From: Escherichia coli
Lineage (GTDB): Bacteria > Pseudomonadota > Gammaproteobacteria > Enterobacterales > Enterobacteriaceae
Assembly: GCA_025336725.1 (NCBI GenBank)
Contig: GCA_025336725.1_3647.1
DNA length: 64,000 nucleotides
Strand: one strand, 5' to 3'
Positions 22,396-59,209 of this stretch are shown piece after piece. The translations under genes were made by a program, and so were the position numbers. Numbering within the stretch: the first letter of the stretch is position 1; every line of letters starts with the position of its first letter. The notes beneath the pieces are model-generated. The model made no database searches, had not been told where the DNA came from, and saw only the letters and a list, made by a program, of their open reading frames with translations.

Positions 22396-23043
22396 CTACT
22401 TGTTAAAGAGAGAAAGTCGCGTAGGCTCCAGACGATACTGCTGGTCACCAGGGAACATAACACCTATAGAGGCTGTCCCTAGAATCCTACCTTCCTTTCC
22501 AGACTCCATTCTGAACCCTACCCATCCTGAACTCCTTGCAGCCTCGATGTTGTCGCTATACCCGAAAGTGGCAAGATCGTCAACACCAGCCCCAAACAGC
22601 AACTGAAGCTGACTTCTCGGAAGCCCTATAATTTCAGGAATATATGCACCAAAGTACACCATCTGCCCTACCTTAGGACCACTGCCGTACTCCATCGGCT
22701 TGCTTGTAGGAAAAGTCTTCATACCAGAAGTCCCTGCCGGATTAGGGTATGCCCCGTTTGTTGCTGTGCCTATCCACATTCTCCACTGAGGTGCCATCTG
22801 TCTGACAGTGAAAGATGTTGAAGACGTTTTGCGGCCTGCATCATCCGTAACTACAAACTTTATAGTGACATTACCAGGGGCTTTAAATGTTACCAATCCT
22901 GTGGTAGCATCCACTGTTGCAATGCTAGTATTACTACTTTCCCAAGTCTTTCTAATCCCTGGCACATTGGAAGGGGTAATAGAAGGTTCCTGCATCTGCA
23001 GTTTACCGCCCACAATCCCTATGCCGTTACCTGGATTATACAA
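22396..23043 (-). CDS. Ig-like (Big_2-type) domain protein; possibly C-terminal extension of upstream large protein
   Basis: ..WESSNTSIATVDATTGLVTFKAPGNVTIKFVV.. Big_2-like; ORF-track start is TTG, frame open from 14 nt below the upstream stop. Confidence 0.4.
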   Translation of the reverse strand: MYNPGNGIGIVGGKLQMQEPSITPSNVPGIRKTWESSNTSIATVDATTGLVTFKAPGNVTIKFVVTDDAGRKTSSTSFTVRQMAPQWRMWIGTATNGAYPNPAGTSGMKTFPTSKPMEYGSGPKVGQMVYFGAYIPEIIGLPRSQLQLLFGAGVDDLATFGYSDNIEAARSSGWVGFRMESGKEGRILGTASIGVMFPGDQQYRLEPTRLSLFNK

Positions 23044-23057
23044 CGCACCAACTTCAT

Positions 23058-26000
23058 CTACAATGTTACCTGCCTTGAGGTCAGCTTTAGAGAAGCTGGG
23101 GTGCCGTTATATGTGTGTGTCCCTGAGAAGGTTACATCTGCCTTGCCGTTGGAGATGCAAACCAAAGCATACTTCCTGTCAGGTAACTGTGCCCCAGTTT
23201 CTGGGTGAGTTTTACCCACCTGGAACACGCTCGGGTCAGTAGAGTCGTGGCTATCACTAACAGAGCTTGGACCCCCCATCAACTGTGACAAGCAATTCCT
23301 TACCCATGTCCAGTTATTGTCACTAGAGAAGTCTACAGTCAAATCAAACACAACCCACTCATTTGGCTTCCACACAGGTGTTGTGATCAACTTACCAACA
23401 CCCCCACCCTGAAGGGTAGGAGATTGTTCAGTGATCAAGGCAGAGTATGCCAGAGTTCCCAACTGCATAGTCTGGCTTGCTGTCCTCACTACCTTAGAAT
23501 CAGCATCTGTGAAGTTGTTGATGATCTGGAATGTGCCATAAGTGTTTTTACAGGTAATTCTGGCATTCAGTGTATCAATCTTTCTCACATCTGCCATGGC
23601 AGTGTTAGACACAGAGAAGTCAGAAGCTTTAGCTGAGTTTGCTGCAACAGCCGGATCAACGTTGAGGGTTGCGTTGAACTGGCAGGCAGGAGTAACCAGT
23701 AGCTTGTTATCACCTATTTGCTTCCATGAAACACTTTGAACAGGGAGATTCCATTTAATACCTGAGAAAACTTTAGCAACCCTTGGTCCCAAAGCTCCAG
23801 TTCTATTGTCTTTACAGCACATAGACATAGTGATCGTTGACGGAGTTGCTTGACCAAACAATTGCTGTGCTTTTGCAGAGGACATAGTGTAGAAATTGTC
23901 CTTAACAAACTCATCAGCCGCTAACGATCCGTCAGACCTCCACCATTGTACCTGGTACCCTGTCTTATCCCAGCCACCAACCTGCTTCAAGTCCTCCCAA
24001 GAGATTTCTAGATCCCCAGTGGTAGGATTGATTGCAGCAGTTCCTGGTGTACCGGATGACCACAATGGGATATCGAACCACGCAGGTTTAACAGATTGCA
24101 CTGCGTTAGGACCTATTGCAGCAGCAAGTTGCCGGCCCATCAATACGCGAGCATCTTTCACCAGACCCCACTCGATCATAGATCCAGAGTAACCTTCTTT
24201 CTTGTAGGCTGAGGATCCGTTCAGATGGATGAGTCTGCTGCAGTCGAAGCCATACGCCCCGCCACCGTTAGGGTCTGCAAAGTTAGTTATGATTCTATCC
24301 CTAATATTTTTCCATGCCCTACCTCCAATCTCGTAGCCATGATCATAGCATCTTTGCAACGTTGTCCAGCAAATGATTGCCATTCTTCTGCCGCCCGTGA
24401 ACCCGAAAGCGCCGTCATTCAGCTCTTTCCACAGGTAACAGTTGGTTGTCCACATAGCCCTGTGGATATTGAACCAGTTTATAGATTTAGCGGAGTTGTT
24501 CCACCGAGTTCCGGGTAATTCAGGCCACACTGCATTTACTAGCATGTCCTCTGTACCAGCATCTATCAGGAAGCCTCTTACCTTCTTGCCCATACCTGCC
24601 CTGTCTTTAGCAATCCAATTGCCAAACAGTCTCAGTTTTGGACCGTAGACAACATCTTCTGGATGCTCAAAAGAAACATACTTTAGATATACTGTAGGGT
24701 CACCATAGGTGCCATCACAAACAGCTTTGTGCATGTTCTCGCCAAGATCTAAACGAAGTCCTGTTACAACTTTAGACGTGTCGGTGAATTTGTCTGTTAA
24801 ATCAAATTCATACCACCACCATCCACCGCCAAGCATGAATTTCTTGCATCGCACAGTGTCTGTATCGGATATTCTCTTATCCCCAGCAAAAGGTGAATCA
24901 GCAAACTGATAGTGCAGAGCAGTCTCGAACAGATGTGTTGATGTGCCGTTTTCTGCAAGAACTTGCTTGCCTATTAAGTCACACTTAATGATCATCACAA
25001 CACGCTTGTACCCGTTTGTTACCGGAACTTGCATAGATATAGATGTTCCGTCCATGTTCGATCTTAGTACGGTCATGATGATATAGGGGTCAACAGCGTT
25101 GCCTAAAGTTTCAGGCCCTGGGATTATCTTGTACTTCTTGACCTGCCCCATAAATCTATCACTGGCGTAAGTTGCAGCCTCTAAGCAAGAGCCTCCACCA
25201 GGTAACTCACCAGGTCCCCAGAAAAATGCGCCATAACAGTTATAAAACCACTTGTTAGGGTCGTATTTGTTCTTGAAGGTCTGAACCTCGTTGGCCTGTT
25301 TTGTCAAGAAAACCTGCGTATCTGTGAAGATTGCAGGGTTTACTCTTGACTGTCGATTAGCATACCCGGTTTGGTTAAACCATTGATTGCAAGAGTAGTC
25401 CCTCATATAGTCATAATCAGAGTATTTGTTGTTTGCATCCTCGTTCCAACACATATTGAGGTTGGTGCCGCCCATGCACACAATATATTCTTCAACGTAT
25501 TTATCACTTCTGGTAGGAACACCTATGAACCATCTGTTAACAGGCTCATCCCAAGCGGTGCGCTCATCTTTAACGCAGATCGCAATCCAGTTATGTGTCC
25601 CTGTTTTCTTGCACACATCTCGCTTCATACCGTAGTAGAATTCTTTAGTATTTGGCTCAGGTGCGCTTATTAGGTAGCTCCACGCCTGGTCCGCATAGGT
25701 TCCATTGGTACGAGGGTCATGATCAAAAGCATACATGATGATCCTTTCCCCACCAAGATGTTCGCCAAGAGTAACTTTGATATTCACATCGCCGTAACCG
25801 TTGCGAACAACATCCATATTGTCAATAGAGATGCCTCTAGGGGTGTAGGCAATTTTCAGTGAGTTATCCTCACTAGTGCCACCAAGGGTGATCCCTATGT
25901 TGTTTGTTGTCCCGTCGGCATATCTTACTGTGGCTTCCCAGCGTATTCCGAAATATCCTACATCATGGCTGACAATTTTCAGTGTACGAGCACCAGAGTT

Positions 26001-26369
26001 AGGTTTTCCAGGATCAGGCCAAGGGTTTGGGTGTTCGTGAACAGTTAACGATGTCCCGTTTTGTTCATTGACCTGCAACATTTTACCACCTCTGCCGTTT
26101 GGGTTGAACTCCCATAAGGCCTGTGTCTGCACCAAGTTATCATAGGTATTTCGTCGCTGATTATAAATCTCTTGGGTAACATCATAAGTTACTGATCCAG
26201 CATCCATTCTATGGAGTCTGACCATATACGATGTATCCCCTTCTACTGCAGGCTGAGCCGCATTCAGTCCAAAGTATATAGTATCATTAACATGGAACTG
26301 TTTGTTTCTACCGACAGTATGCCATTTACCATCAGACTGGTAAGCCGGGACAATGGTGTTCCAGTTCAA
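23058..26369 (-). CDS. large tail fiber / tailspike-like protein with putative carbohydrate-active domain
   Basis: 1103 aa; ORF-track start is TTG without good RBS; frame open upstream into 3' end of ORF 26423..28033. Confidence 0.45.
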   Translation of the reverse strand: MNWNTIVPAYQSDGKWHTVGRNKQFHVNDTIYFGLNAAQPAVEGDTSYMVRLHRMDAGSVTYDVTQEIYNQRRNTYDNLVQTQALWEFNPNGRGGKMLQVNEQNGTSLTVHEHPNPWPDPGKPNSGARTLKIVSHDVGYFGIRWEATVRYADGTTNNIGITLGGTSEDNSLKIAYTPRGISIDNMDVVRNGYGDVNIKVTLGEHLGGERIIMYAFDHDPRTNGTYADQAWSYLISAPEPNTKEFYYGMKRDVCKKTGTHNWIAICVKDERTAWDEPVNRWFIGVPTRSDKYVEEYIVCMGGTNLNMCWNEDANNKYSDYDYMRDYSCNQWFNQTGYANRQSRVNPAIFTDTQVFLTKQANEVQTFKNKYDPNKWFYNCYGAFFWGPGELPGGGSCLEAATYASDRFMGQVKKYKIIPGPETLGNAVDPYIIMTVLRSNMDGTSISMQVPVTNGYKRVVMIIKCDLIGKQVLAENGTSTHLFETALHYQFADSPFAGDKRISDTDTVRCKKFMLGGGWWWYEFDLTDKFTDTSKVVTGLRLDLGENMHKAVCDGTYGDPTVYLKYVSFEHPEDVVYGPKLRLFGNWIAKDRAGMGKKVRGFLIDAGTEDMLVNAVWPELPGTRWNNSAKSINWFNIHRAMWTTNCYLWKELNDGAFGFTGGRRMAIICWTTLQRCYDHGYEIGGRAWKNIRDRIITNFADPNGGGAYGFDCSRLIHLNGSSAYKKEGYSGSMIEWGLVKDARVLMGRQLAAAIGPNAVQSVKPAWFDIPLWSSGTPGTAAINPTTGDLEISWEDLKQVGGWDKTGYQVQWWRSDGSLAADEFVKDNFYTMSSAKAQQLFGQATPSTITMSMCCKDNRTGALGPRVAKVFSGIKWNLPVQSVSWKQIGDNKLLVTPACQFNATLNVDPAVAANSAKASDFSVSNTAMADVRKIDTLNARITCKNTYGTFQIINNFTDADSKVVRTASQTMQLGTLAYSALITEQSPTLQGGGVGKLITTPVWKPNEWVVFDLTVDFSSDNNWTWVRNCLSQLMGGPSSVSDSHDSTDPSVFQVGKTHPETGAQLPDRKYALVCISNGKADVTFSGTHTYNGTPASLKLTSRQVTL

Positions 26370-26422
26370 AGTCCTTGTTGTATGAGTCCTGCCTGTGCCA
26401 TGTTTGTCATGATAGGTTATTT

Positions 26423-28033
26423 TTACGGATACAGCCCACGTCTGTTAACATTCCTGTTATACTGGGTGACAATAACTTCGTTGGCCCCTCCGTGGTTCCA
26501 GTTGGTAGAGAATTGGTAATTTGCATCTGTAACAACCGTGCCTGCAGCATTTACCAGTTCAATCTTGTCAATAATGAACGTAGCCCCCTCTGGCTGAGGC
26601 TTCAATTTCATCTTGACTGTGTCGCCAATGTAGATATTGCTAACGCTGCTAACACCGTTAACGTCGAAAATATCATCAACTCCCCAACTGTCTACTGGGA
26701 CATTTTTATACCAATTCTCAGGAACCTCTGTGAACCCTTGACTATTAAGTCTGCCGCCAAACAGGTTATTAGAACCTGCAAAACTTCCCCTTGGAATGCC
26801 TGACCACCAAAGTTTACCATTAACAACAGTAAAAGTCCCTAAGAAACCTTCTCTGTGAATGCCTTGGAAATAAACACTTTCTGTCCAGCTAACTGGGAGG
26901 CGTTGCTCAACGTATTTGGCTGTGGCAAGAGCTTGATAGTGGATAAAATTGGCCCTGGGGCTATTGTTTGCAGACTGTGCACCAATATCATTACATAAGT
27001 TGCGAGAGAATCCGCGATACTGCTTAGTACCATTATTGAAGAAAATGCCACTTGTTCCGTACCCACGAGCCATTATTACTTCATGGGTGTAGGTAATATT
27101 TAAGGAACGCCATGTATCATCTCCCCAGACATCTTGCCCGTAGAATACGTTAACAAGCTGCTGATCATTAGGCTTGTGCATCCTCTGCGTTGCAATTATC
27201 GCCCCGTTAGGACCACACATGAATCCTTTCCACTCCTCATCTGCAGGAATGCCTTTCAAATCGTTGCGAGTAATCTGAGCAGGGGGCCAAACAAGGTCGT
27301 TTCTACTGTTGTTTCTCAGAAAGTCGTATCCAGCAATCCAAAAACCTCTAGGCCCACCGAAAATAACAGAGTTGTCATGCACCTCGCAGTTGATACTTGG
27401 GTTTTTCCAAGGGCCTGTTTCAGGATTTTCTGATGTTTCACCAATCTTTACAGGAGTTGCATGCTGGTTCTTATCTACATGTAAAGATCCGTAGGTGTTG
27501 TTACCAGACCCATACAGGTTCAGTATGCCAGTACCTTCTGCCTCTGCAATAACCCAGACAGTGTTGTTAATACCTCCCATTACCTCAATAAGGCGCTCTG
27601 GGTGGGTGTCAAGGTGCAATCCTTTAACAATCTGTTCCGGAAGAGGTGTCCACTCGTTGACGCAAACATCGTTACCACCTGCCGCAGTGGATCCGATAAG
27701 ACCTGCAGTGCAGCCGATGTAGAAAAACTGGTTATCAAAAGTCCGGATCACAAACGCACGGTCTGCTCTCCACACATGATCAACATTCCAGGCTGTCTCG
27801 CTCGGGTAGTTTATAGGGCTACGATCCCCAGTGCGACACTCCCCGAACTTGTTATAGCCAGTAATATTAAGCTGACCATCGTCAAAAAGTATAGCTAAGC
27901 TATTTACATAAGCTACTGTAGTGCTTGTACCGTCACTGTTGTCTATTGGATATGACAGAACAGCAAGTTCCTTAACTCCACTCCTCTTATCGAGGAAATG
28001 ACGACCAAGTTTTAGCAAAGGGATTGGAAGCAT
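26423..28033 (-). CDS. tail fiber/tailspike-like protein, possibly N-terminal part of the 23058..26369 protein
   Basis: 536 aa; ATG with GGAGA RBS; Gly/Asn-rich beta-rich repeats. Confidence 0.45.
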   Translation of the reverse strand: MLPIPLLKLGRHFLDKRSGVKELAVLSYPIDNSDGTSTTVAYVNSLAILFDDGQLNITGYNKFGECRTGDRSPINYPSETAWNVDHVWRADRAFVIRTFDNQFFYIGCTAGLIGSTAAGGNDVCVNEWTPLPEQIVKGLHLDTHPERLIEVMGGINNTVWVIAEAEGTGILNLYGSGNNTYGSLHVDKNQHATPVKIGETSENPETGPWKNPSINCEVHDNSVIFGGPRGFWIAGYDFLRNNSRNDLVWPPAQITRNDLKGIPADEEWKGFMCGPNGAIIATQRMHKPNDQQLVNVFYGQDVWGDDTWRSLNITYTHEVIMARGYGTSGIFFNNGTKQYRGFSRNLCNDIGAQSANNSPRANFIHYQALATAKYVEQRLPVSWTESVYFQGIHREGFLGTFTVVNGKLWWSGIPRGSFAGSNNLFGGRLNSQGFTEVPENWYKNVPVDSWGVDDIFDVNGVSSVSNIYIGDTVKMKLKPQPEGATFIIDKIELVNAAGTVVTDANYQFSTNWNHGGANEVIVTQYNRNVNRRGLYP

Positions 28034-28047
28034 TGTGTTCTCCAGAT

Positions 28048-28072
28048 AAGAAAACCGCCCCGTCAGGAGCGG
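28048..28072 (-). terminator. rho-independent terminator
   Basis: Minus strand CCGCTCC-TGAC-GGGGCGG followed by TTTTCTT, downstream of ORF 28082..29827. Confidence 0.5.
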
Positions 28073-30112: not shown

Positions 30113-30850
30113 TTAAGCATAAGATATCGTGATCCATTGACCGTTTACAAATTTTTGAATAGCACCAGTCCAATAGTCACCTTGATACGGGTGTTTATAG
30201 GCGTAATTGCCGGAGCACATTACATGCCCAGGGTATACTCTTGATTCTCTGTAGGTGGTTCTGAAACGGTTTGCTATCCTTACATCTTCAACACCCCTAC
30301 TAGGCATAGGGATAGTAAGGTTACCACTGCTATCTGCGCTACTACCATTTACCCTGCGGACCACGTTTCTCCCACCAACTGTTGCATATTGACCTCTGGC
30401 GGTTTTATCGTTACAATCTACTCTTCCCCCTATTTGAGCGCTGCCGCAGGATTGTTGTCCATTAACAGTGGCTCTAGGTATCGTTACCGCATTAGCATTT
30501 GCAGAGGAGCTTTTTGCATCATTGCATTCAAGATTCCCTTGGATAGCCAGTCTTGCACGGTTGGCAGTTATAGCATTGAGCTTCATAGCCGAAAACACAG
30601 GTTGCCCACCAGAAGGTTGAAATCTCCAACGGAAACCGTCTATTTGGTGAGAGGGATCATCAAGGTCTGTGCCGTCAGCACCACCTATGTTGTCCATAAT
30701 CCAGAAATCCATCATCGTCTTGTCTGGAGTTATGGTGGTGTATATCGCCGCATTGTCTGTTGACGCGGATGCGAACTCGATTCTTTGAAGACCTAAAGTT
30801 TGAGTCTGGATCATTGTGTCTCCAGCCTTGTCAACATAAAGGTCATCCAT
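30113..30850 (-). CDS. tail fiber 1, C-terminal part (P2 gpH / Mu S-like); frame-split from N-domain ORF
   Basis: C-terminus ..AIQKFVNGQWITISYA resembles P2 gpH end (..IQKYINGTWYNVAQV); paralogue of 32171..32956. Confidence 0.6.
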   Translation of the reverse strand: MDDLYVDKAGDTMIQTQTLGLQRIEFASASTDNAAIYTTITPDKTMMDFWIMDNIGGADGTDLDDPSHQIDGFRWRFQPSGGQPVFSAMKLNAITANRARLAIQGNLECNDAKSSSANANAVTIPRATVNGQQSCGSAQIGGRVDCNDKTARGQYATVGGRNVVRRVNGSSADSSGNLTIPMPSRGVEDVRIANRFRTTYRESRVYPGHVMCSGNYAYKHPYQGDYWTGAIQKFVNGQWITISYA

Positions 30851-31161
30851 TTCTTCAGGCGAGTATACATTGAGAACTTGACGTGCGGCAGCTTTGTCTG
30901 GAACGTCTGCTGATTATTAGTGACCCTTAAGAATCTATTATCCCATCCTGGGACAACATCTTCTGTTAAATGCTTCAACATTTGGTGAGAGAGCATGTGA
31001 AGTTCAAAGTTATCAACCTCACATGCCACTCTTTGTGTCATATCCCAACCTTTCAATCTCTCTTCTTTTTTTGGCTGAGACTTATTCAACTCTCCCGTAT
31101 TTTCAAGCACAACATCCTGATTGGCCCAAATATCAAGAGGGATAACTGGTTTAGTCATCAC
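30811..31161 (-). CDS. tail fiber 1, N-terminal domain ORF (different frame)
   Basis: AGGAG RBS + ATG; MMTKPVIPLDIWANQDVVL..KGWD.. homologous to N-domain ORF 33019..33213; last ~45 codons look out of frame. Confidence 0.5.
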   Translation of the reverse strand: MMTKPVIPLDIWANQDVVLENTGELNKSQPKKEERLKGWDMTQRVACEVDNFELHMLSHQMLKHLTEDVVPGWDNRFLRVTNNQQTFQTKLPHVKFSMYTRLKKWMTFMLTRLETQ

Positions 31162-31209
31162 GTTCTCCTGAGAAAATTCCTTAGACTATTTTAACACTTT
31201 AGAGAACAA

Positions 31210-31240: not shown

Positions 31241-31368
31241 TTTGTTTACCTTTTACTATGCTCTACGAGCATGTGCAAAATCTTTTGTATAGTCGGCTCG
31301 ATGTTTCGAGACATCTGTCCTGACATCCTGCTTAAGGTCGTTAATATCGGCCTCTAGCTTGCTTAACT

Positions 31369-31560
31369 CTAAGTCTCGATAACGGAATCGTTATCTTTTT
31401 GTAACCATGCTATTTTCGACACTAAAATGAGGTCTTTCTCCAGCTCATCTAGCCTCTTGGAAATTCCTTTCATTTGCACACTGGTTGAAAGCCCATACAC
31501 AGATCGGGACAACAGTAGCTTCCATGCAGATACCGTATAAAGCCGCCAAATCCAACCCAC
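31369..31560 (-). CDS. small hypothetical protein; coiled-coil continuation in -1 frame to 31256
   Basis: GTG start 5 nt after strong GAGGAGG RBS; -1 frame continues ..LSKLEADINDLKQDVRTDVSKHRADYTKDF.. with no start codon. Confidence 0.4.
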   Translation of the reverse strand: MGWIWRLYTVSAWKLLLSRSVYGLSTSVQMKGISKRLDELEKDLILVSKIAWLQKDNDSVIET

Positions 31561-31571
31561 AACACCTCCTC

Positions 31572-32156
31572 TTAGAGGGTAGGTCGTCTCCCGAAGAAAA
31601 TGTCAGGGGCTTTAGATGTATCTATTTCAAGCAGTTTTACCCTGTATATTTTCAAATCTCTGATGTTGCGTTTTTGGTCATCAGTAAGATCGTATTCAAG
31701 GTCAATCATGTCTTGATAGGCACCAATTCTAGCAGTAGCCCAAGCAAGTTCTGTCTCTATGACACCCTCTGCCTGTTGAACAAAGAATTCATTGTCTGTG
31801 ACAAATTCATCACCAACTAAACGCAAAGCGTCGTGGTGGAGCATAATGTTTTCTGGTACCTCTTCTTTTTTGGCGATAACCACACGAAGACCTGGAGCAG
31901 GCCACAAGGCATCAGGTTCTTCTGTAGATGTCTTAAGAATACCCTTCTCGTCAACAAGTAGGAAGATACAGCCCGGATTTTCTTGTCGTAGTGTTCGTGA
32001 TTGCACATACCAATCGCCATCATCATTACGTAAAAAATATCCGGTGTATGCCGTGTAATCCTCAACCTCCTGAGGAGTCAGCTCCTTGGTCTCCTTGTTG
32101 GTGTAGTATTCGCCAGATCCCGGTTGGTAAAGTTTAAACTCTTGAAGTATTTTCAT
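31572..32156 (-). CDS. tail fiber assembly protein (Tfa / gpG / Mu U family)
   Basis: 194 aa; C-terminus ..IRDLKIYRVKLLEIDTSKAPDIFF.. resembles lambda Tfa (..[22 protein letters not shown]..). Confidence 0.75.
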   Translation of the reverse strand: MKILQEFKLYQPGSGEYYTNKETKELTPQEVEDYTAYTGYFLRNDDGDWYVQSRTLRQENPGCIFLLVDEKGILKTSTEEPDALWPAPGLRVVIAKKEEVPENIMLHHDALRLVGDEFVTDNEFFVQQAEGVIETELAWATARIGAYQDMIDLEYDLTDDQKRNIRDLKIYRVKLLEIDTSKAPDIFFGRRPTL

Positions 32157-32170: not shown

Positions 32171-32956
32171 CTATGCATAATTAACAGTGATCCATTGACC
32201 ATTTACAAGTTTTTGTAAAGGTCCTGCCCAGTAGGTTGAACCACGCATCTCTTTTTTGTCACCGAAATGCCAGCCTGTGACAACGTAGCCGTTGCGGATT
32301 GGAGATTCAGAAACGCCGTCCACAAGTCTTGCACCGATTCTGATGTCTTGCACACCTGTCTGCGGGATAGTGATCGTTACATCACCGTTACCGTTAGCCG
32401 TCACTCCGTTCACAGAGCGAACCACATTTCTGTTACCTACAACACAGTGCTGGCTTCTTACAACCATACTGTCACAACTTGCACCACCATTAACATATAC
32501 TGACCCAGCCGTCAACTGACTGGCAACATTACAGTTGGTGAATGTTGCTGTATTGCTGATAGTAAGGTTATTGCACCTCATGTTATCGACAACTTCAACA
32601 TTGCCTACCACTTTCAACAGCGCACGGTTAGCCGTGATCGCGTTAAGGTACATCAAAGTGAACTCTGGATTAATATCCGGCTGAGTTGGCTGGAATCTCC
32701 AACGAAACGCATCTACTGTAGATGTGCCACCATCATCAAACGCCCCAGTGTTATCACTTAACCCAAAGTCGAGAGTTGTCTTATCTGGACCGATAGTTGT
32801 CTCTATCCAAGCCTTATCTGTCTCGGCAGCTTTAAAGTTGATACGCTGCAAACCTAAGGGGCCTGTCATTGTATCGCCTGTAACTTTTACATACCTGGCG
32901 TCTGCCTCTTCCTTAGTAATAATCCCAAGGTTTCTACGGGCAACAGGAATGTTCAA
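32171..32956 (-). CDS. tail fiber 2, C-terminal part (P2 gpH / Mu S-like); frame-split from N-domain ORF
   Basis: C-terminus ..PLQKLVNGQWITVNYA; ORF-track start is TTG preceded by TGA TAA TAA; followed by Tfa gene. Confidence 0.6.
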   Translation of the reverse strand: MNIPVARRNLGIITKEEADARYVKVTGDTMTGPLGLQRINFKAAETDKAWIETTIGPDKTTLDFGLSDNTGAFDDGGTSTVDAFRWRFQPTQPDINPEFTLMYLNAITANRALLKVVGNVEVVDNMRCNNLTISNTATFTNCNVASQLTAGSVYVNGGASCDSMVVRSQHCVVGNRNVVRSVNGVTANGNGDVTITIPQTGVQDIRIGARLVDGVSESPIRNGYVVTGWHFGDKKEMRGSTYWAGPLQKLVNGQWITVNYA

Positions 32957-33018
32957 AAATCGCTCAGGTTATTATCACGTATTGTGATAACGGCCCTCTG
33001 TAAGGTGGGATCTGCTCG

Positions 33019-33213
33019 TCAGCAATATATTTTGCCCAAGTCCCGGAGCATATTGAAAATATAGTTAAGTTCTTCACATGACGGCTTTTGACCAAGATCC
33101 CAACCTTTTCTCCACAAATCATCAATCGGGCGTAGCCTGTTCTGTCTGTGGGTGTTAGGCAGAACCTGATCCTCCTCTGCCCAAATCTCTAATGGAAAAC
33201 TAGGTTTTGACAT
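33019..33213 (-). CDS. tail fiber 2, N-terminal domain ORF
   Basis: 64 aa; MSKPSFPLEIWAEEDQVL..KGWD.. homologous to 30811..31161. Confidence 0.5.
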   Translation of the reverse strand: MSKPSFPLEIWAEEDQVLPNTHRQNRLRPIDDLWRKGWDLGQKPSCEELNYIFNMLRDLGKIYC

Positions 33214-33225
33214 TTTATCTCCTGA

Positions 33226-37516: not shown

Positions 37517-37551
37517 GGTATTTTACCAAATTTTGTAACAATAGTCAATCT

Positions 37552-37584
37552 GAGCATAAAAATAAACCCCGCCGAAGCGGGGCT
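37552..37584 (-). terminator. rho-independent terminator
   Basis: Minus strand GCCCCGC-TTCG-GCGGGG hairpin followed by TTTATTTTTAT. Confidence 0.6.
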
Positions 37585-37591
37585 TTAAAGG

Positions 37592-38144
37592 TTAGTCGTG
37601 AGACTCGTTCCAAGGTCCCTGGAAGCTTGAGTTAGAACGGCTTACCACAACAGTAGGACAGGATATTGCGACCCCTGTTACAGAAGACGTTGACCATGGT
37701 GTGTAGATTTCAACAACAATATCTATGGTTTGTTCACCAAGACCTGTTATCCCTACCGCACACATGCCGTTGTTGTCGTTTCCGTATTTCTTACCTGCAA
37801 GGATTTGATGTCCGGCTATCCAAACGTTGAGCTGGGGTTTCGGCAAGAGTAGCCATTCAGTTTAAAGAAGAATGTTACGTTCTTACCCTGACCTGAAACG
37901 TTATCTACGTATCTCCACCTCCAACGGCAAACCCTTTGCTTGGGAGTTATATACTGGAGCACAATCCCCGTAAGTCCCTGTGTGTGCAACAATTGCACCG
38001 AACTGGTTAGCACGGATAACAGAAGCTTCTACACGACCACGGAAGGTATCTCCGGTTGCATCTATGGTGCCTCTAAAGCTACCATTATTGGCATAAATAT
38101 CCCCACGGAAGGTACCACTAGTGGCGTTAACTGCCCCCGTGAAG
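37592..38144 (-). pseudogene. frameshifted 3' continuation of lambda J-like gene (receptor-binding region in three frames)
   Basis: After stop at 38145 a -1 frame encodes ..GNFTGAVNATSGTFRGDIYANNGSFRGTIDATGDTFRG.. (lambda J C-terminal-like), then two more frame changes (ORFs 37816..38013, 37592..37846). Confidence 0.5.
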
Positions 38145-41100
38145 TTACCAGAACTGGCGTTGAGCGTTGCCTTTCACCCACACATCCATAAATTGGGGCG
38201 TGCCCGTTCTTGTTAATATACCAACCGTATTTATGGTACTTCCGTTGCCATCGTAGTTGTTTGACGAAATCTCCTGTGCAATCTTGGCTGAAGAGATCGT
38301 GCCATTTTCTATGAAGGCATCTTTCAAGAACGCTTGGTTGTTCTTGATTGCGAAAGCAAGGGTTGCTGTTCCGTTTCCAGGGTTATATACCGCAAAATTG
38401 TTTGCACTAACCATAAAGTAGGATTGAACTTGGCCCCCAGACCCTTCCATCCCCAACTGGATACCTGCAACATATTTATTCCCTGCGGAGTCCACCTGTA
38501 TTTTTGTGCCCCACTGAGCGTTTACTTTACCCTCTAAGTCGGTTACAGCCTTAGATGTTGTAGCTACTGCAGCCCTGATCTCGGACACATCTCCAACATC
38601 ATCAATGATCTCCTGCTTAGCAACAGCAAGTTCTTGACGAATAGCTGACGCTGTTCCGTTAATCAGGTCAACAGTGGCCTGATTAGTTTCAGAAATATTT
38701 GCAGACAAATCTTTCTTAGCTTGGGTAAGCTTATTATCCAACCCCGTAATATTGTTGGTGTTGGTTGTAATCTGCCCTTTAGCAGAGGTTAATTGTTCAG
38801 ATAAGGCTGCAGTTTTCTGATTCAGCAGGTCCGTTGTGGCCTTGTTGGTGGTAGAGATCAATGTATTGAGATCAGATTTAGTGGTGTTGATCTTGCCATC
38901 TAGAGTGGTGTAGTTTTTAGATACCGTGGCGTTAGTCTGGCTAATCTTCTGGTCAAGAGTCTGAGAAGTTCTATTCAGCAAATCCACAGTGGCCTGATTG
39001 GTGCTCAGAATGCTTGCATCCAGCTCAGATCTCTGAGTATTCAACTTACCTTCCAGGCTCTTATCTCCAGCCAGATATCCTTTTTCAACATCACCGATCT
39101 GCTCGGTTAGCTCACCTTGTGCAGCAACCAGTTTTTCATCCAACGCATCTGTTTTCTTGTTAAGAAGATCAGTGGTGGATTTGTTGGTTGTCTCAATCAA
39201 CGACGACAGTTTGGCACTCTCATTATTCAAGTTGTTGGTCAACTCACCTTTCGTTGCCGTCAGCTTATTGTCCAGTGCCTCGGTTTTCCGATTAAGGAGA
39301 TCTGTAGTCGTCTTATTGGTTGATACAATCAGAGAGTTCAGCTCAGAGCTTTCCTGTGCTAAAGCATCTTCCAACTCCCCCCTTGTTGAAACAATCTTCT
39401 CGTCCAAAGCTTCAGTTTTCTGATTTAGCAGATCGGTTGTAGCTTTGTTAGTGGTCTGGATTAGAGAAGTCAGCTTGCCACTTTCTTTAGAAAGATCATC
39501 TGCAAACTTGTTCTGAGTGGCTACCAGTTTCTGGTCTAGAGTGGTAAGCGTTCCATTAACGTCCTGGAAGTTGTCGTGGGTTTCTTGGATGAATATTCCA
39601 ACCCTATCCCCCAACTGAGCATACAGCTTGTCTACTCTAGAGAACTCACCTTCCATGTGGTCAAAAGCCTCGTCAACTCTACCATCCATGTACCTGTTAA
39701 GTTCTGTGACACGATTTTCAACCTCTTCAATAGAGGAATCCAAAGTGCTCATCAACTCTTTATAAGTTTCTGTCTTTTTGAATTCAGCATCTATCTGAGG
39801 CATCAAATCCTCGATAGAGGTGTAGCAGCGTGCAGCGCATTCTACAAACTGAGAGCTACCAAAAGCGTTTGTGGTTCGAATATACCAATAATAAACCTTA
39901 TCGTTCTGCAGGCCTTCAGATGTCCAAGTTGAACCAACACCCATACGGGTGGCGTTTGAAGTAACGGTTGCATCGCTGGTGTCGGGCAACCTTGTCATAC
40001 CAGATGTCCAAAAGTCATACTGGGTGCTTACACTTGCTAAATCCCTGCTGTGTGGAATCAAGGTGATAGCAAAGTATCCCTGCTTAACCTCTACAGAAAC
40101 AGGAGCTTCAGGTGCCTGAATGTTAAACTCGCAGTACGCTTCTGGAGATACACCACCTTTATAAGATGTTGCAACCACGGTTGCTGTGTATGATCCTTTG
40201 GTCAAGCCTTCTACTCGGACAAACTGCTCAACTGTCTGTGCTGTCCAAACAATCTCTCCGTTCTTTCTTACCTGCACAATATTTTGAGCGTAAGTTCCAA
40301 CGTTGTCCCAAGCCAAAACACCGTGAGTTACTTCCCCGGCTTGGAGAACGGAATACCTGAAGTTTTGCGGTTGAGCTACACCAGATGGAGATATCGGAAT
40401 ATCTACATTACCAGAGTCCGGAAGTTGTCCTGTGGCATCATTCCACTCTTTAGCATCTTGACGGAGTTTTACCTTGACACCACCCTTTTTAGTAAACTCC
40501 CATTCAAGAACCCTCATTTCTTGGCCCACTATACCAATACTTGGGAGGTTCATTGTAACGTAACGACCAGGTTTAAATTTAAAACCTCGCATATTGCAGG
40601 TGACTTCAATAATCCTGCCAGCTCTAGCGCGTCTTAAGAAGATTGCAGAAACACGCTGGGCTTGATAAGGGCTGGTAACAAAGCGATAGTCTATATCGAT
40701 TATCTTTCTTTCTCCATCCTTCTCTATCCACTCTGGGACAAACACTGATGGAAAATCTGTTTCAGAATATCCTTTGGTCGGGCTAGTGAATCTGCCAGTT
40801 ATTGTGTTGGATCTTTTGTCAAACGAGGCTTCCGGATAGATCTTAACCTCACCACAGACACAGTCCTCACTCAGTGTCATTGTTGCAGGGCCATAGTATG
40901 CACCAACCAGCAAACCATACTTACCAGCAACATAACTAAGATCTGCACCACAGGCTTTCAGCATTTCTGCCATAATACTTGCTGGGGCCTCATCCATGTC
41001 GAACTCACCGTTAATTGTGTAACGTCGCTCACTGGTTCCGTCAGCGTTTTTTACCGCCTCGTCGCATATGTTGGCAGCCTCCTTGAAGGACTCCCAGTTG

Positions 41101-41744
41101 ATGGTCTCGTCAGGACATTTAAGGTACGTTCTTAAATAGTCTAGGATCACCAAGGCAGCGTTATTGGTATACACCTCTTTACTGATACGAGGATCATAGC
41201 ATTTTTTACCAACCTTGACGAGTGTGACGTTTGGCAACCCAAAAGGAAACTTGTTAGGGTCAAACTTGAAGCTGGCACGTAGCCAACTGATCCCTCTACC
41301 TATCATGTCTGGTGACCAAGATGGGCAGTGTGTCCCCATGAAAGGATCAGCTGTTTTTCTGTCGTTATGTAGCTCCCACGATACCAAATCTCCATACGAG
41401 GAAATAGGATTACCATCGATAAGTATATCTTCTATACCTTCCAGAGGGTGATTGGCAAGAACAATAGCACAATGAAGAGTTTTGTCTCTATCCTGCTCCA
41501 AAAACGCAAGCAATCCGGATGTGCGTGTCTTACCATACACTACAGAGCAAGGTGCAGCAGAAGATCTGAGAAGCTTTTGTCTATCTTGCTGACTTCTGTA
41601 AGATTTGTTGCCCTCAAAAATCTTATCCAGAGTTCTGGTGGTAACAGTGTTCAGGCTGTCAGCCAGAGCTGCCTTGGATGCGTTCCAGTCATAACTTGAA
41701 GATCTTGCAGAAGCAACGATGTTATCAATCATTGCAATTGGCAT
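38145..41744 (-). CDS. central tail fiber / host specificity protein, lambda gpJ-like
   Basis: 1199 aa; ..APEAPVSVEVKQGYFAITLIPH.. and ..NKYVAGIQLGMEGSGGQVQSYFMVSANNFAVYNPGNG.. match lambda J; internal coiled-coil repeats. Confidence 0.75.
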   Translation of the reverse strand: MPIAMIDNIVASARSSSYDWNASKAALADSLNTVTTRTLDKIFEGNKSYRSQQDRQKLLRSSAAPCSVVYGKTRTSGLLAFLEQDRDKTLHCAIVLANHPLEGIEDILIDGNPISSYGDLVSWELHNDRKTADPFMGTHCPSWSPDMIGRGISWLRASFKFDPNKFPFGLPNVTLVKVGKKCYDPRISKEVYTNNAALVILDYLRTYLKCPDETINWESFKEAANICDEAVKNADGTSERRYTINGEFDMDEAPASIMAEMLKACGADLSYVAGKYGLLVGAYYGPATMTLSEDCVCGEVKIYPEASFDKRSNTITGRFTSPTKGYSETDFPSVFVPEWIEKDGERKIIDIDYRFVTSPYQAQRVSAIFLRRARAGRIIEVTCNMRGFKFKPGRYVTMNLPSIGIVGQEMRVLEWEFTKKGGVKVKLRQDAKEWNDATGQLPDSGNVDIPISPSGVAQPQNFRYSVLQAGEVTHGVLAWDNVGTYAQNIVQVRKNGEIVWTAQTVEQFVRVEGLTKGSYTATVVATSYKGGVSPEAYCEFNIQAPEAPVSVEVKQGYFAITLIPHSRDLASVSTQYDFWTSGMTRLPDTSDATVTSNATRMGVGSTWTSEGLQNDKVYYWYIRTTNAFGSSQFVECAARCYTSIEDLMPQIDAEFKKTETYKELMSTLDSSIEEVENRVTELNRYMDGRVDEAFDHMEGEFSRVDKLYAQLGDRVGIFIQETHDNFQDVNGTLTTLDQKLVATQNKFADDLSKESGKLTSLIQTTNKATTDLLNQKTEALDEKIVSTRGELEDALAQESSELNSLIVSTNKTTTDLLNRKTEALDNKLTATKGELTNNLNNESAKLSSLIETTNKSTTDLLNKKTDALDEKLVAAQGELTEQIGDVEKGYLAGDKSLEGKLNTQRSELDASILSTNQATVDLLNRTSQTLDQKISQTNATVSKNYTTLDGKINTTKSDLNTLISTTNKATTDLLNQKTAALSEQLTSAKGQITTNTNNITGLDNKLTQAKKDLSANISETNQATVDLINGTASAIRQELAVAKQEIIDDVGDVSEIRAAVATTSKAVTDLEGKVNAQWGTKIQVDSAGNKYVAGIQLGMEGSGGQVQSYFMVSANNFAVYNPGNGTATLAFAIKNNQAFLKDAFIENGTISSAKIAQEISSNNYDGNGSTINTVGILTRTGTPQFMDVWVKGNAQRQFW
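38640..39500 (-). repeat. tandem ~130-nt coding repeats inside J-like gene
   Basis: About 6 repeats of ..SxLxSLIxTTNKxTTDLLNxKTxALDxKLxxxxGELT..; boundaries approximate. Confidence 0.5.
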
Positions 41745-50533: not shown

Positions 50534-51118
50534 TTAGTTAACATCAATAGCACGACCAGACTGGTTGGCAATAGCCTCATCATTGGAGGTAGCAATAACA
50601 CCAGAGTATTCGCGCTCATCTGGAGCAAGCGTCCAGGTATTGCGGTTAATGGTTTGTTCTGCCTCAGTCATCAGCAGATCTTTATCCTGAGTCAACAGAG
50701 AGCCTACAGGGATCGGGTTTTCCATCTCAGGACCAGCATACTGGTTCCACCATGTGGCATCTCCGGTTCTAGGCAATCTGAAGTTGATCAGGTAGTACAG
50801 TTTATTAGCCCACTTAATCCAACCCTCATCATCACAGAGAGAGGTTGTCCCAGAATCAGGCTGTGGGTAGGTGAACTGATCAAGACCTACGAAAGCCAGC
50901 CTTACAATCTCGTTCTCTTTGGTAACAACCTCAAAGAACGCTTGGTATGTTCTAGATCTTCGATCCATGGTAGACTGGAAGTTTATGATGTTTAGCACAT
51001 CCGGCTCTTGTCTTGCCACTTCCATAATCTTGTTATCAAGAACAGTCTTCATGACCTTCTTGCTGAGAAAGTCCATATAAGGGAGCAAACAGCTCGTCAG
51101 CAGCCAGCTCCCTTCCAC
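50534..51118 (-). CDS. baseplate wedge protein gp25/W-like, C-terminal part (frame-split)
   Basis: ORF-track GTG start without RBS; ..KIMEVARQEPDVLNIINF.. downstream of N-part in another frame. Confidence 0.4.
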   Translation of the reverse strand: MEGSWLLTSCLLPYMDFLSKKVMKTVLDNKIMEVARQEPDVLNIINFQSTMDRRSRTYQAFFEVVTKENEIVRLAFVGLDQFTYPQPDSGTTSLCDDEGWIKWANKLYYLINFRLPRTGDATWWNQYAGPEMENPIPVGSLLTQDKDLLMTEAEQTINRNTWTLAPDEREYSGVIATSNDEAIANQSGRAIDVN

Positions 51119-51246
51119 GTATTAAACCTCATCCACAAGCGCTGGCGCAGACTTACCTGGTTTGAATCTATCAACTCAAGACCTTTGTCTATCGCCAAAT
51201 CGCCTGTCTGCGGGTCCATCAATATGTCACTATAAAGCGTAGCCAT
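51097..51246 (-). CDS. baseplate wedge protein gp25/W-like, N-terminal part (49 aa ORF)
   Basis: ATG at 51246 with AGGG RBS right after gpV-like stop; MATLYSDILMDPQTGDLAIDKGLELIDSNQVSLRQRLWMRFNTWKG matches gp25/W N-terminal pattern. Confidence 0.4.
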   Translation of the reverse strand: MATLYSDILMDPQTGDLAIDKGLELIDSNQVSLRQRLWMRFNTWKGAGC

Positions 51247-51258
51247 GAAAGCCCTCTA

Positions 51259-53332: not shown

Positions 53333-53878
53333 TTATTTTCCGTTAACTTTGTTGTAGTTCCCCTGCTCAGATGGGACTATGGTGGAAGGTCTTCCATATT
53401 CCTGATAATACCAATCTGCAGCCGATTGGGTAACACCGTTTTCATCTGTCCACATCATGGATTTGTATGGCTGCCACTCTTCTGCAGCATTTGTGGACGC
53501 GGTGTCTGCAAATGCCCCTGTGTCTCTCTTGTTACCTACGTTACTACCATTCTTGCAATCGTTGACAGCCCCTTTTTGCTGGGTCTTGCCGACCTTCTTG
53601 GGGTTGCTGTATACAGTTGCATTAACAACCTTGTTCAAGTAGAATGTGCGGAATTCTGTAAGTTCCACATCAAACACCATTGCAGCACCCTCACCAACAG
53701 ACTTGTTGGCAGAAAGACTGGTTATAATGTAGTTTTCAAGGAGTCTCTCTTCAGTAACTAAAGAAACCAACTGCCGCTTATTAATGATCTCGTCAAAGTT
53801 TCCAGTGCAGCGCCGCAAGTCGCATAGACGCTGCAGGGTTTTTAGAGTCAGTATTCCTGTCAATGTAGTTTTGCTCAT
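53333..53878 (-). CDS. hypothetical tail protein
   Basis: 181 aa; ATG at 53878 directly after in-frame TAA; overlaps upstream ORF by 86 nt. Confidence 0.4.
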   Translation of the reverse strand: MSKTTLTGILTLKTLQRLCDLRRCTGNFDEIINKRQLVSLVTEERLLENYIITSLSANKSVGEGAAMVFDVELTEFRTFYLNKVVNATVYSNPKKVGKTQQKGAVNDCKNGSNVGNKRDTGAFADTASTNAAEEWQPYKSMMWTDENGVTQSAADWYYQEYGRPSTIVPSEQGNYNKVNGK

Positions 53879-54218
53879 AGATTATATGTGGTGATGTATT
53901 TACCCTACCAGTAAAAGAAAATACACCATCTTTAATTACAGCGTGGTCTGACAGGGTAGATTTATCTTCCACCGCAAACCCAGTCTTATCAACAGAATGT
54001 TTGAAAGAATAGTTCTCAACCTGGTCGAAGATAATGGCAAGATCGTTAGTAAAGTTTTTACCCTTCATCTCCGTATTGCGACCACCATAGTTAAGACCGC
54101 TGACAAACATAGTATACTTTACATCGCTTTCAGTTTGCTGCTCTGCCTTTTCAGCCTTTGGAGATTTAACCTCTTGAGGCTTGTACAGGTCTTTTTCATC
54201 AACTATATTGCTTGGCAT
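53793..54218 (-). CDS. hypothetical tail protein
   Basis: 141 aa ORF; 3' end overlaps next gene in a different frame. Confidence 0.4.
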   Translation of the reverse strand: MPSNIVDEKDLYKPQEVKSPKAEKAEQQTESDVKYTMFVSGLNYGGRNTEMKGKNFTNDLAIIFDQVENYSFKHSVDKTGFAVEDKSTLSDHAVIKDGVFSFTGRVNTSPHIIYEQNYIDRNTDSKNPAASMRLAALHWKL

Positions 54219-54282
54219 AACCTCTCCAGGACACTCCTATACCATCTAGATATTGTATCATAAACAGCTACGTTTTTACAAC

Positions 54283-54323: not shown

Positions 54324-54464
54324 TTACCAAAGGTCGGTAGACATGAAGTTGATATCTTTATTGTTCTCCCACTCAAGTTTTGCATCAAATATTTTGTTAA
54401 ACTCGCCCTCATCTATTGAAATCGTGATTTTCCCATCACTGATCTCTAAAGGTAGCATTTCCAT
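54324..54464 (-). CDS. small hypothetical ORF (46 aa)
   Basis: MEMLPLEISDGKITISIDEGEF.., below ORF-track cutoff; sits just upstream of terminator; weak RBS. Confidence 0.25.
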   Translation of the reverse strand: MEMLPLEISDGKITISIDEGEFNKIFDAKLEWENNKDINFMSTDLW

Positions 54465-54637
54465 AGTTCTTAATTGAGAAGCAAAACCGAGGCCACCCCG
54501 GCAACGGAAAATCCCGCCCCATTAAGGTGTCCAAAGGATTAACAAACCCGTTACCTCAAATGAAAGTATCTTTGCGAATCATATCGCTGATAGCATCCAG
54601 CTGCTGATTTCTTTCACTTAGTGGGTTGTAACGGTCA

Positions 54638-56662: not shown

Positions 56663-56674
56663 GCTTTCCTCATA

Positions 56675-56711
56675 ATAAAAAGGGCCAGATCCCAGAAAAG
56701 GAATCCGGCCC
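56675..56711 (-). terminator. hairpin plus T-run between chaperone and tape measure genes (terminator or attenuator)
   Basis: Minus strand GGGCCGGAT-(12-nt loop)-ATCTGGCCC followed by TTTTTAT. Confidence 0.35.
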
Positions 56712-56716
56712 TTAGA

Positions 56717-57523: not shown

Positions 57524-58762
57524 TTAACCTTTCAACCAATCCAAGTATGCAGGATCATTTTTACCTTCATCGCTGTGCCATTCGAAGCGAGAGTTGCCGC
57601 TGTTTTCAAGGATATAGCAGCCTGCATTTTTAGCATTCCACTCTTGTGTTTTCTCAGGATCGTATAAGGACTCGTCCAACCCTAAATGCTTCAGTGTCTC
57701 TTGGATGTTTGACTTCCACCAAGCCTGTCTTGGCATTCTGCCACCACGGTAGCTCCAGAAGCTGGTAGATACCTGATCGTCCTCTGCCAAAATCCAGCCA
57801 TCCTCCTCCTTATAGGACACACCTGTGAAGTAATCCCTGTCAAGGAAGGATTGAACATGATCCATCTTAAACTCTTTTTGGATATGCTTAAACAGCTTAC
57901 TACGCCCACCAGGAACGTTACAGCTTGTTGCATACCTTACCATGTCCCACATAACGAAAGGGGTTACCTTTTGATCTCTGTTTTTCAATACCTTAAAACT
58001 CATACAAGCTACCAGCTCACCGTCAGATGTAAACAGACCCTTCTTCACTTCCTTGGCGGGAGCATACCCTTGAATGTGGTTTTTCTCCATAAAGTCACGG
58101 TAAGTTTTATTGTCCACATCCCTAACTGTGCACTTTCTGGCATAGACGGTCTTCTCGTCTTTGACTCCTAAAGCATTCTTAAGATATCTCTCAATGATAG
58201 GTCTTTTCCGAGCATCCTGCCAATCACAATCCCATATAGACAACATGCGAATACCTTGTTTTTCACAGGCCTTCCTTTTCAGGATGTGGTACCATTTCCC
58301 CTTACTATCCACGGAGTGCCAATAGGCACCATTATATTCCACAGCAAGCTTAAGCTCCGGGATATAAATGTCCAGCTCCATCTTTTTCTTGGAAGGATCT
58401 TTAAAGTTGTCCAGAATCCGCACGTTCTCTTCAATATCTCCGCTATAGACACTTTTAATGAACGTCAGGATCTCTTTTTCACCATTAGACTGATTGCGAC
58501 AGCAACGAGGGCATCCTTGTCCTTTCCCGTAATGGAATTCAGGACGCTGCATGAAGATATTCCCACACTCTTTGTGGCGCATCATCATAGGCGTTGAGGC
58601 GTTCACATAAGAGTCTTCAAAATACTCATAATCCCCACCATGAACTTCTACACATCTCTCAACTATTTCTTGGAAGCTAGGAACTTTTTTCACAGAAACA
58701 GACCTTGCTGCGCAAGTCTTGCACCCTTGCCCAGATAAATGCTTGCTGGGTTTCTGATACAT
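57524..58762 (-). CDS. homing endonuclease-like protein (zinc ribbon plus nuclease-like domain)
   Basis: 412 aa between tube and chaperone genes; N-terminal HGGDYEY..C..CG..F.Q.P..H..G.GCP.C zinc-ribbon; central ..LDIYIPELKLAVEYNGAYWH.. Confidence 0.45.
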   Translation of the reverse strand: MYQKPSKHLSGQGCKTCAARSVSVKKVPSFQEIVERCVEVHGGDYEYFEDSYVNASTPMMMRHKECGNIFMQRPEFHYGKGQGCPRCCRNQSNGEKEILTFIKSVYSGDIEENVRILDNFKDPSKKKMELDIYIPELKLAVEYNGAYWHSVDSKGKWYHILKRKACEKQGIRMLSIWDCDWQDARKRPIIERYLKNALGVKDEKTVYARKCTVRDVDNKTYRDFMEKNHIQGYAPAKEVKKGLFTSDGELVACMSFKVLKNRDQKVTPFVMWDMVRYATSCNVPGGRSKLFKHIQKEFKMDHVQSFLDRDYFTGVSYKEEDGWILAEDDQVSTSFWSYRGGRMPRQAWWKSNIQETLKHLGLDESLYDPEKTQEWNAKNAGCYILENSGNSRFEWHSDEGKNDPAYLDWLKG

Positions 58763-58849: not shown

Positions 58850-59149
58850 TCAAGGATATCTTTTTAATACCTTTTTGATCCACTCCTCGGTAGTGCACCT
58901 GTTACCACGCTCATGTGGGAATTTCTTACCCTTTCTTGATTTTGCAGATCTCTCAGCTCCACAAACAGGGCATCCTCTTTTTAGATTTATATGGTTATCA
59001 GGTGTCTGGTTGAAGTGGTTACCGCAGGTATTGCAGACTATTTCTACCTTATCTTTGCATGTTTTGTATTCTATAAGAGAATAATCGTACTTATCTCCGT
59101 GAACCCTACGAGCTTTTTCGATAAACCTTTCTGCACTCAATTTAGCCAT
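58850..59149 (-). CDS. small zinc-ribbon protein related to N-terminus of adjacent endonuclease-like gene
   Basis: 99 aa; HGDKYDYS..CNTCGNHFNQTPDNHINLKRGCPVCG parallels N-terminus of ORF 57524..58762. Confidence 0.45.
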   Translation of the reverse strand: MAKLSAERFIEKARRVHGDKYDYSLIEYKTCKDKVEIVCNTCGNHFNQTPDNHINLKRGCPVCGAERSAKSRKGKKFPHERGNRCTTEEWIKKVLKRYP

Positions 59150-59209
59150 AACTGTCTCCTCCTTTATTGTAGGATACTAAAAACAAACAAATATGTCAAA
59201 ACCCTAAAA

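Follow-up and report, generated by a model that had tools for sequence, protein, structure and literature searches.

The loss of reading frame in the tail tip fibre gene of the window studied here (the whole stretch of DNA analysed, 64,000 nucleotides) is very probably an artefact, introduced by faulty sequencing or assembly of a low-quality draft contig, as comparison with the sequences of related phages suggests. The frame loss was genuine in the sequence as given but was not located at the A-run at which the first-pass annotation had placed it. Compared with the genes of rV5, YN3 and WM, the window copy carried eight private indels, all within 400 bp (38241 to 37841), which split the gene into a 1199-aa ORF and three out-of-frame pieces. 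An artefact is favoured because the same scattered small indels break eight other genes nearby, and none of these breaks was found in related phages.

The window represents an rV5-like (Vequintavirus) E. coli myophage, its DNA being about 93% identical to that of more than 100 GenBank phages. The 1199-aa ORF (41744..38145, minus strand), which ended at 38145 as had been reported, was identified as the homologue of rV5 gp037 (YP_002003539.1, 'central tail fiber J', 1279 aa), orthologous and in the same position. The gene order was of the rV5 type, i.e., the fibre gene followed the gp40 to gp38 homologues and preceded a terminator and the gp36 baseplate gene. The homologues immediately upstream, those of rV5 gp40 (distal tail protein), gp39 and gp38, were 99-100% identical to their YN3 counterparts, and the downstream baseplate gene (rV5 gp036 homologue) was intact, with 99.2% identity. 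Judged by its sequence, the gene product is a lambda-J-like tail tip fibre of Vequintavirus. The J-like identity proposed earlier was upheld by a match to PHROG 31 'central tail fiber J' (E=1.6e-158, residues 143-1175), by PF09327 (Phage_Tail_Tip, formerly DUF1983; residues 1059-1194 and E=8.3e-36 in the ORF as deposited), by PF24489 Ig_J_second (E=1.3e-30, 106 bits against a cut-off of 27; residues 547-652 in the deposited ORF) and by the lambda J structure PDB 8iyk, matched overall at E=2.2e-28 (phmmer). PF24421 Ig_J reached 24.5 bits, under its cut-off of 29. Fibre gene assignments in Vequintavirinae are unsettled according to the BASEL paper (PMC8594841).

As deposited, the 1199-aa ORF covers the N-terminal ~87% of the rV5 gp037 homologue and terminates as ...FMDVWVKGNAQRQFW* at a spurious TAA (38147-38145). 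Its first departure from the ancestral frame lies upstream of that stop, at an AA insertion (38240..38241, minus strand, as are all features of the gene given below), where the window reads AACGGAAGTACC and the relatives AACGG--GTACC. About 14 codons (38199..38239) were thereby left outside the ancestral frame within the PF09327 domain, reading STINTVGILTRTGTP in the window and YHKYGWYINKNGHA in the relatives. In the alignments, the next indel was an additional C at 38198, giving a C-run of four (38195..38198) where the relatives have three, and together with the upstream +2 it returned the reading to the ancestral frame. The first two indels thus sit within the 1199-aa ORF and scramble 14 codons. 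The ORF was ended by a third indel at 38164..38165, consisting of one extra base and one substitution outside any homopolymer (window GGCAACGCTCAACG, relatives GGCAACA-TCAACG).

Downstream of this point the C-terminal ~190 codons of the fibre gene were stranded in other frames. The ancestral-frame continuation NASSGNFTGAVNATSGTFRGD...YNSQ (37942..38163) aligned with lambda J residues ~962-991, and the earlier statement that the adjacent frame encodes ..SSGNFTGAVNATSGTFRGDIYANNGSFRGTIDATGDTFRG.. was confirmed by translation. Two private 3-nt changes fell within this segment, the loss of GAA between 38000 and 37999 and a gain at 37980-37978. It was followed by a private +1, an A at 37941 (37940..37941; window CTCCCAAGC, relatives CTCCC-AGC), after which a third frame segment (QRVCRWRWRYVDNVSGQGKNVTFFFKLNG, 37853..37939) was recognised by translation and alignment. 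Two more private +1 changes followed, a C at 37852 (window AATGGCTAC, relatives AATGG-TAC) and one with three adjacent substitutions at 37841 (37837..37841; window GCCGAAACCCC, relatives GCC-AGCTCCC). The last ~80 ancestral codons (..LNVWIAGHQ...GPWNESHD) and the true stop TAA (37594-37592) occupied 37592..37836. Two further frame changes after the first had been described in the first-pass annotation; further switches do follow, although more lesions are present than were counted there. Overall the fibre gene became longer by 7 nt, so the frame was never restored and the changes do not compensate one another.

All eight indels were absent from each of the five sequences aligned base by base with the window, i.e., rV5, EduardKellenberger, VB-EcoM-WM, YN3 and the independent IMG/VR contig L008. 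The true stop lay at the same position in all five, and the relatives examined continued to it rather than ending where the 1199-aa ORF does. Their gp037-type proteins were either 1279 or 1381 aa long, and 1381 aa was also the length of 13 of the 15 members listed from the 129-member 90% protein cluster. The 461-nt stretch was covered to 80% or more by 116 GenBank phage records; none of them matched it at 99% or more, and the records listed (n=15) all spanned 454 nt, 7 nt shorter than the window. The 24-mer over the frame-breaking indel had no exact match in the viral_contigs, genome_contigs and metagenome_contigs collections. A conserved nearby 36-mer from the window, used as a control, did recover contig L008; the frameshifted sequence likewise had no match in complete E. 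coli genomes. The exact 1199-aa protein (NCBI MCT7477417.1) was seen on one contig only, of 122,420 nt and labelled E. coli. NCBI accepted this ORF as a protein record.

When the eight indels were undone, one ORF of 1381 codons without internal stop was obtained. Counting the stop, 1352 of 1382 positions agreed with the YN3 protein (97.8% aa identity end to end), and its stranded C-terminal part was, indels aside, conserved as well as the rest of the gene. In the repaired protein PF09327 spanned residues 1059-1199 (E=2.9e-39, 134 bits against a cut-off of 22). At the DNA level the window gene was 91-93% identical to those of rV5, YN3 and WM, and its allele was a mosaic, with the stalk length of YN3 (vB_EcoM_YN3, XVB59660.1) and WM (VB-EcoM-WM, XCZ60131.1), both 1381-aa long-stalk alleles, and the last ~250 nt of the rV5/EduardKellenberger type. 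The gene would then be an ordinary Vequintavirus orthologue of rV5 gp037 with a true length of 1381 aa here, and in the real phage it most likely reads without a break up to the TAA ahead of the terminator.

The fibre gene was not alone in being affected. Against three mutually concordant complete genomes, the window held 66 private indels, and nine genes, all intact in YN3, were fragmented: the homologues of rV5 gp19, gp27, gp30, gp31, gp33, gp37, gp44, gp48 and the tape measure gp49. The indels were strongly clustered (index of dispersion 4.8 against ~1.0 expected, a value reached in none of 10,000 simulations), and the chance of finding at least eight within 400 bp was ~2e-4. The tail and tail-fibre module (22.4-55.5 kb) held 60 of the 66, a distribution not obviously expected of a purely random error process. 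Besides the one in the fibre gene, patches lay at 22.36-23.10, 30.9-31.6, 32.96-33.05, 51.08-51.11, 53.79-53.81 and 54.26-55.47 kb. Several private indels had garbled neighbouring bases.

These properties resemble those of frameshift artefacts in draft or low-coverage assemblies, which are private to one record, clustered and often accompanied by garbled neighbouring bases, and which disrupt numerous unrelated genes but leave the codons underneath conserved. On this reading, wrong base calls or consensus errors would have left a patch of eight small indels in 400 bp and broken the frame. The patch would not be the only one, the tail module of this contig containing several. The window differs from such artefacts in that most of its indels are not homopolymer errors. 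Homopolymer slippage as a general cause was rejected, since runs of at least three bases held only 14 of the 66 indels and the A-run noted earlier was unchanged. A garbled consensus from mixed fibre alleles was not supported either, as the indel patches did not coincide with sites variable among the reference genomes (rho 0.01, p=0.92). Generally low base accuracy in the patches was also considered; the private substitutions showed a weak excess only (rho 0.22).

The alternative that the indels are real, this phage genome from an E. coli isolate assembly being a defective or decaying copy or a host-range variant whose J-like fibre is truncated after PF09327 and has lost its distal tip domain, is considered unlikely. 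The sequence was deposited in this form, the indels are concentrated in the tail module, and the 1199-aa ORF keeps all recognisable J-type domains. Moreover, some distant J-like proteins in the PDB end soon past the region matching PF09327; the F2-pyocin fibre of 1204 aa aligns as far as its residue 1184, and the 1172-aa 9l9p_S fibre as far as its residue 1167, and a fibre end near here is therefore not structurally absurd. However, the tape measure gene was equally broken, as were seven more genes that mostly belong to the tail, baseplate and fibres, so that no tails could be formed; nine broken genes including the tape measure are incompatible with a viable lytic phage. The rV5-like phages are virulent and have no prophage state in which to decay. 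The conservation of the stranded C-terminal codons at the level of the whole protein is at odds with relaxed selection over a long period, the conserved PF09327 domain itself contains two of the indels, which garble codons there, and no second sequence sharing any indel was found among the aligned relatives, in the GenBank records or by the exact 24-mer searches.

It is very improbable that the tail and tail-fibre module of a Vequintavirus persisting in an E. coli culture was the target of a localised mutagenic process, by which the fibre would have been truncated before its distal tip. If true, such a truncation would mean a Vequintavirus without the tip domain of its J-like fibre and would bear on which fibre is needed for adsorption. 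The truncated-fibre reading is not supported by the data here, and the biological meaning implied by the first-pass annotation, a fibre truncated before a receptor-binding tip, is not supported in view of the identical-looking lesions in eight other genes, the tape measure among them. It is necessary to point out that neither MCT7477417.1 nor the other fragmented genes of the contig should be taken to document truncated fibres, host-range variants or pseudogenes.

A single genuine slip at the A-run of GTGAAAGGC (38172..38174), either a polymerase slip that became fixed or a homopolymer sequencing error, is scarcely plausible as the cause of the truncation. On direct reading the stop is indeed bypassed if one A is removed, as the first-pass annotation had noticed, but the same three A's were present in all aligned relatives, with GTGAAAGGC identical in rV5, EduardKellenberger, VB-EcoM-WM and L008. 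The alignment placed the extra base 8-10 nt downstream (window AACGCTCAAC, relatives AACATCAAC), i.e., at the 38165/38164 lesion, and a one-base correction would leave seven indels, with the frame breaking again at 37941, 37852 and 37841. Programmed ribosomal frameshifting, or a natural division of the gene into several products in this lineage, has a practically negligible probability; nothing beyond the open stretches in other frames speaks for it, in all relatives examined the ORF runs on without interruption (1279 or 1381 aa), the scheme would call for four +1 shifts in succession and a garbled stretch of 14 codons besides, and no slippery motif was visible on direct reading at 38165, 37941, 37852 or 37841.

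If the frame loss is set aside as an error, the 1381-aa protein would comprise an N-terminal hub-like region, J-type Ig/FN3 domains, a long alpha-helical stalk and the PF09327 tail-tip-fibre domain, followed distally by short SGxFxG-type repeats and a lineage-specific domain of ~130-165 aa. Its likeness to lambda J was partial. The Ig/FN3 domains common to both aligned over query residues 497-681 and J residues 666-847, and the tail-tip-fibre domain with the first repeats beyond it over 1057-1218 and 842-991, whereas no phmmer match to J residues 1-665 was obtained from the N-terminal region of the fibre. The window fibre also differs from J in having a helical stalk of ~400 aa between the Ig domains and PF09327, in which no tandem repeats were detected at the DNA level. 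The parallel with the C-terminal region of lambda J, drawn in the first-pass annotation, held just past the break, where J ~962-991 was aligned (phmmer, PDB 8iyk), but not further: the alignment stopped at J residue ~991 of 1132, and the last ~165 aa of the fibre, lineage-specific, showed no detectable similarity to the LamB-binding receptor-binding domain of J, the last ~130 aa being without a Pfam or PHROG match. In contrast to lambda, the phage that carries this gene is contractile-tailed and has several other fibres (PMC8594841). In the N-terminal region, residues 245-472 gave a weak, partial match to residues 526-752 of the T5 baseplate hub protein pb3 (E=5.7e-5; PDB 8hqz, 7zhj), a similarity that would be consistent with a role as tail-tip hub, although pb3 has no PF09327 fibre part.

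Beyond the true stop, the terminator reported near 37552-37584 was recovered as an intrinsic terminator on the minus strand (37555..37585), with the hairpin AAGCCCCGCTTCGGCGGGGTTT followed by a T-run, identical in the relatives. Ahead of the rV5 gp036 homologue, a sigma-70-like promoter match, by consensus only, was seen at 37520..37548 on the same strand.

The deposited sequence does contain the frame loss in the J-like tail fibre gene, but it is very probably not real in the phage. The region is that of an rV5-like (Vequintavirus) E. coli myophage. By megablast, the 20 kb around the finding matched 127 GenBank phage records (~92-94% identity among the 20 listed), with a single match covering at least 80% of the query in 62 of the 127; the 1.6 kb around it matched 165 records. 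Eighteen GenBank records titled 'Campylobacter phage' (MG0656xx series) are likewise rV5-like coliphage genomes, unannotated and ~92% identical to the window. The J-like gene is the orthologue of rV5 gp037 (gp37), labelled 'central tail fiber J' in RefSeq and tail fibre or host specificity protein J by other submitters. Its product has 1279 aa in rV5, EduardKellenberger and phiWec191, and 1381 aa in VB-EcoM-WM (WM) and vB_EcoM_YN3 (YN3).

In the window, the minus-strand ORF 41744..38145 encodes 1199 aa up to its TAA stop (38147-38145), and the neighbouring frame past this stop encodes ..NASSGNFTGAVNATSGTFRGDIYANNGSFRGTIDATGDTFRG.., both as described in the first-pass annotation. The terminator reported there, at 37585-37555, combines a GC-rich hairpin of nine pairs with a T-run. 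Of the further frame changes it listed, two more visible switches do occur before the final ..GPWNESHD and stop at 37594-37592, but the lesions were undercounted. When the region was aligned with rV5, EduardKellenberger, VB-EcoM-WM, YN3 and an independent IMG/VR metagenomic contig, eight indels absent from all five sequences were found: +AA at 38241-38240; +C within a C-run at 38198; +1 at 38165/38164 (AACGCTCAAC in the window versus AACATCAAC), which ends the ORF; GAA lost between 38000 and 37999; +3 at 37980-37978; +A at 37941; +C at 37852; and +1 at 37841, with three substitutions adjacent. Both of the first two (+2 then +1) fall within the 1199-aa ORF, where they scramble 14 codons (STINTVGILTRTGTP vs YHKYGWYINKNGHA in the relatives). 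The A-run GTGAAAGGC (38174-38172), to which the frame loss had been attributed, is the same in every aligned sequence, and the ORF-ending base lies 8-10 nt downstream of it. As the eight indels sum to +7 nt, they do not compensate one another.

Undoing the eight indels gave a 4146-nt ORF of 1381 codons without internal stops, whose product agrees with that of YN3 at 1352 of the 1382 positions aligned, counting the stop. The C-terminus had indeed been stranded in other frames: the repair rejoins ~190 codons, which are as conserved against YN3 as the rest of the gene. Close relatives all continue past the stop of the 1199-aa ORF, and the window still encodes the missing part, in other frames.

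The assignment as J-like was borne out by PHROG 31 'central tail fiber J' (E=1.6e-158), by the PF09327 tail-tip-fibre domain (residues 1059-1199 of the repaired protein, E=2.9e-39) and by alignment with solved structures of lambda J, in which residues 497-681 align with J 666-847 and 1057-1218 with J 842-991 (E=2.2e-28). The repaired protein also carries PF24489 (J-type Ig domain, E=1.3e-30) and a helical stalk of ~400 aa; PF24421 scored under its cut-off, and T5 pb3 matched the N-terminal region weakly (E=5.7e-5). The proposed likeness of the post-break peptide to the C-terminal region of lambda J holds, but only up to about J residue 991. No similarity to the receptor-binding domain of J was detectable in the last ~165 aa, which also matched no family in Pfam or PHROG. 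Because several distant J-like PDB proteins end soon after the PF09327 region, the truncated 1199-aa ORF still looks plausible as a protein. Vequintavirinae carry several fibre sets, with allelic variation in three large fibre genes and putative gene-to-fibre assignments (BASEL study, PMC8594841). The window allele is itself a mosaic: 38300-41744 matches the long-stalk, 1381-aa form of YN3 and VB-EcoM-WM, and the last ~250 nt (37595-37835) follow the rV5/EduardKellenberger allele, not that of WM and the metagenomic contig, which is consistent with tip-domain exchange among Vequintaviruses.

The indels were not recovered elsewhere. The 461-nt stretch bearing them was covered to at least 80% by 116 phage records, none matching at 99% or more, and its counterpart is 454 nt (7 nt less) in all 15 records listed. 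None of viral_contigs, genome_contigs and metagenome_contigs contained an exact match to a 24-mer over the frame-breaking site. A conserved control 36-mer taken close by in the window did retrieve a relative. No complete E. coli genome searched matched the indel-bearing sequence. The exact 1199-aa protein is NCBI MCT7477417.1 ('DUF1983 domain-containing protein [Escherichia coli]'), seen on a single 122,420-nt contig; its 90% protein cluster has 129 members, of which 13 of the 15 listed have 1381 aa. The cluster also holds a truncated 1139-aa member on 140,869-nt contigs, in which the orthologue appears frame-broken at a different place.

The decisive evidence on the gp37 frame loss is the presence of split genes elsewhere in the window. 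When all YN3 proteins were searched against the window by tblastn and the open frames were checked, nine genes proved to be spread over at least two frames each, although every one of them is a single ORF in YN3. Apart from gp37, the genes affected are homologues of rV5 gp19 (19606-20171, plus strand) and, on the minus strand, gp27 (1878-aa fibre, 22399-28072), gp30 (30116-31185), gp31 (31249-31621), gp33 (32174-33225), gp44 (50537-51255), gp48 (53336-54236) and the tape measure gp49 (54327-56716), all with the same kind of lesion as gp37. Against YN3, rV5 and phiWec191, which agree with one another at the sites concerned, the window has 66 private indels, balanced between insertions (31) and deletions (35). 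Sixty fall within 22363-55466, which is the module for tail and tail fibres, and form patches 0.1-1.2 kb long that resemble the gp37 patch: isolated 1-4-nt indels, often beside a few garbled bases, between near-identical flanks. The indels are markedly clustered: in 500-bp bins the index of dispersion was 4.8 (~1.0 expected), a value reached in none of 10,000 simulations, and the chance of eight indels within 400 bp was ~2e-4. The patches do not track homopolymers (at least 3 bases), which hold only 14 of the 66 indels, and private substitutions are only weakly enriched in them (rho 0.22).

Tail formation would be impossible for a virulent myophage in which the tape measure gene and several genes for baseplate and fibres are disrupted. 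Yet conservation persists in the codons underneath the lesions, and the private indels are most simply read as local errors of base calling or consensus building in a draft contig of low quality. That the patches are real in the phage is very improbable, and would be of moderate interest only. There is no support for a consensus garbled by mixed alleles, because the patches do not coincide with the sites variable among relatives (rho 0.01).

The window also differs in gene content. A 447-aa YN3 gene (locus L004, 5590-6933) is missing at ~5913-5978, the kind of presence/absence variation that mobile genes typically show in rV5-like phages. A 1.65-kb insertion (57545-59194), absent from YN3, rV5 and phiWec191, separates the gp51 homologue (tail assembly chaperone) from that of gp52. 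It encodes two minus-strand ORFs, one of 412 aa (58762..57524) with no Pfam match and one of 99 aa (59149..58850) that weakly matches DUF723 and a treble-clef zinc finger, and is probably a mobile gene of the homing-endonuclease type.
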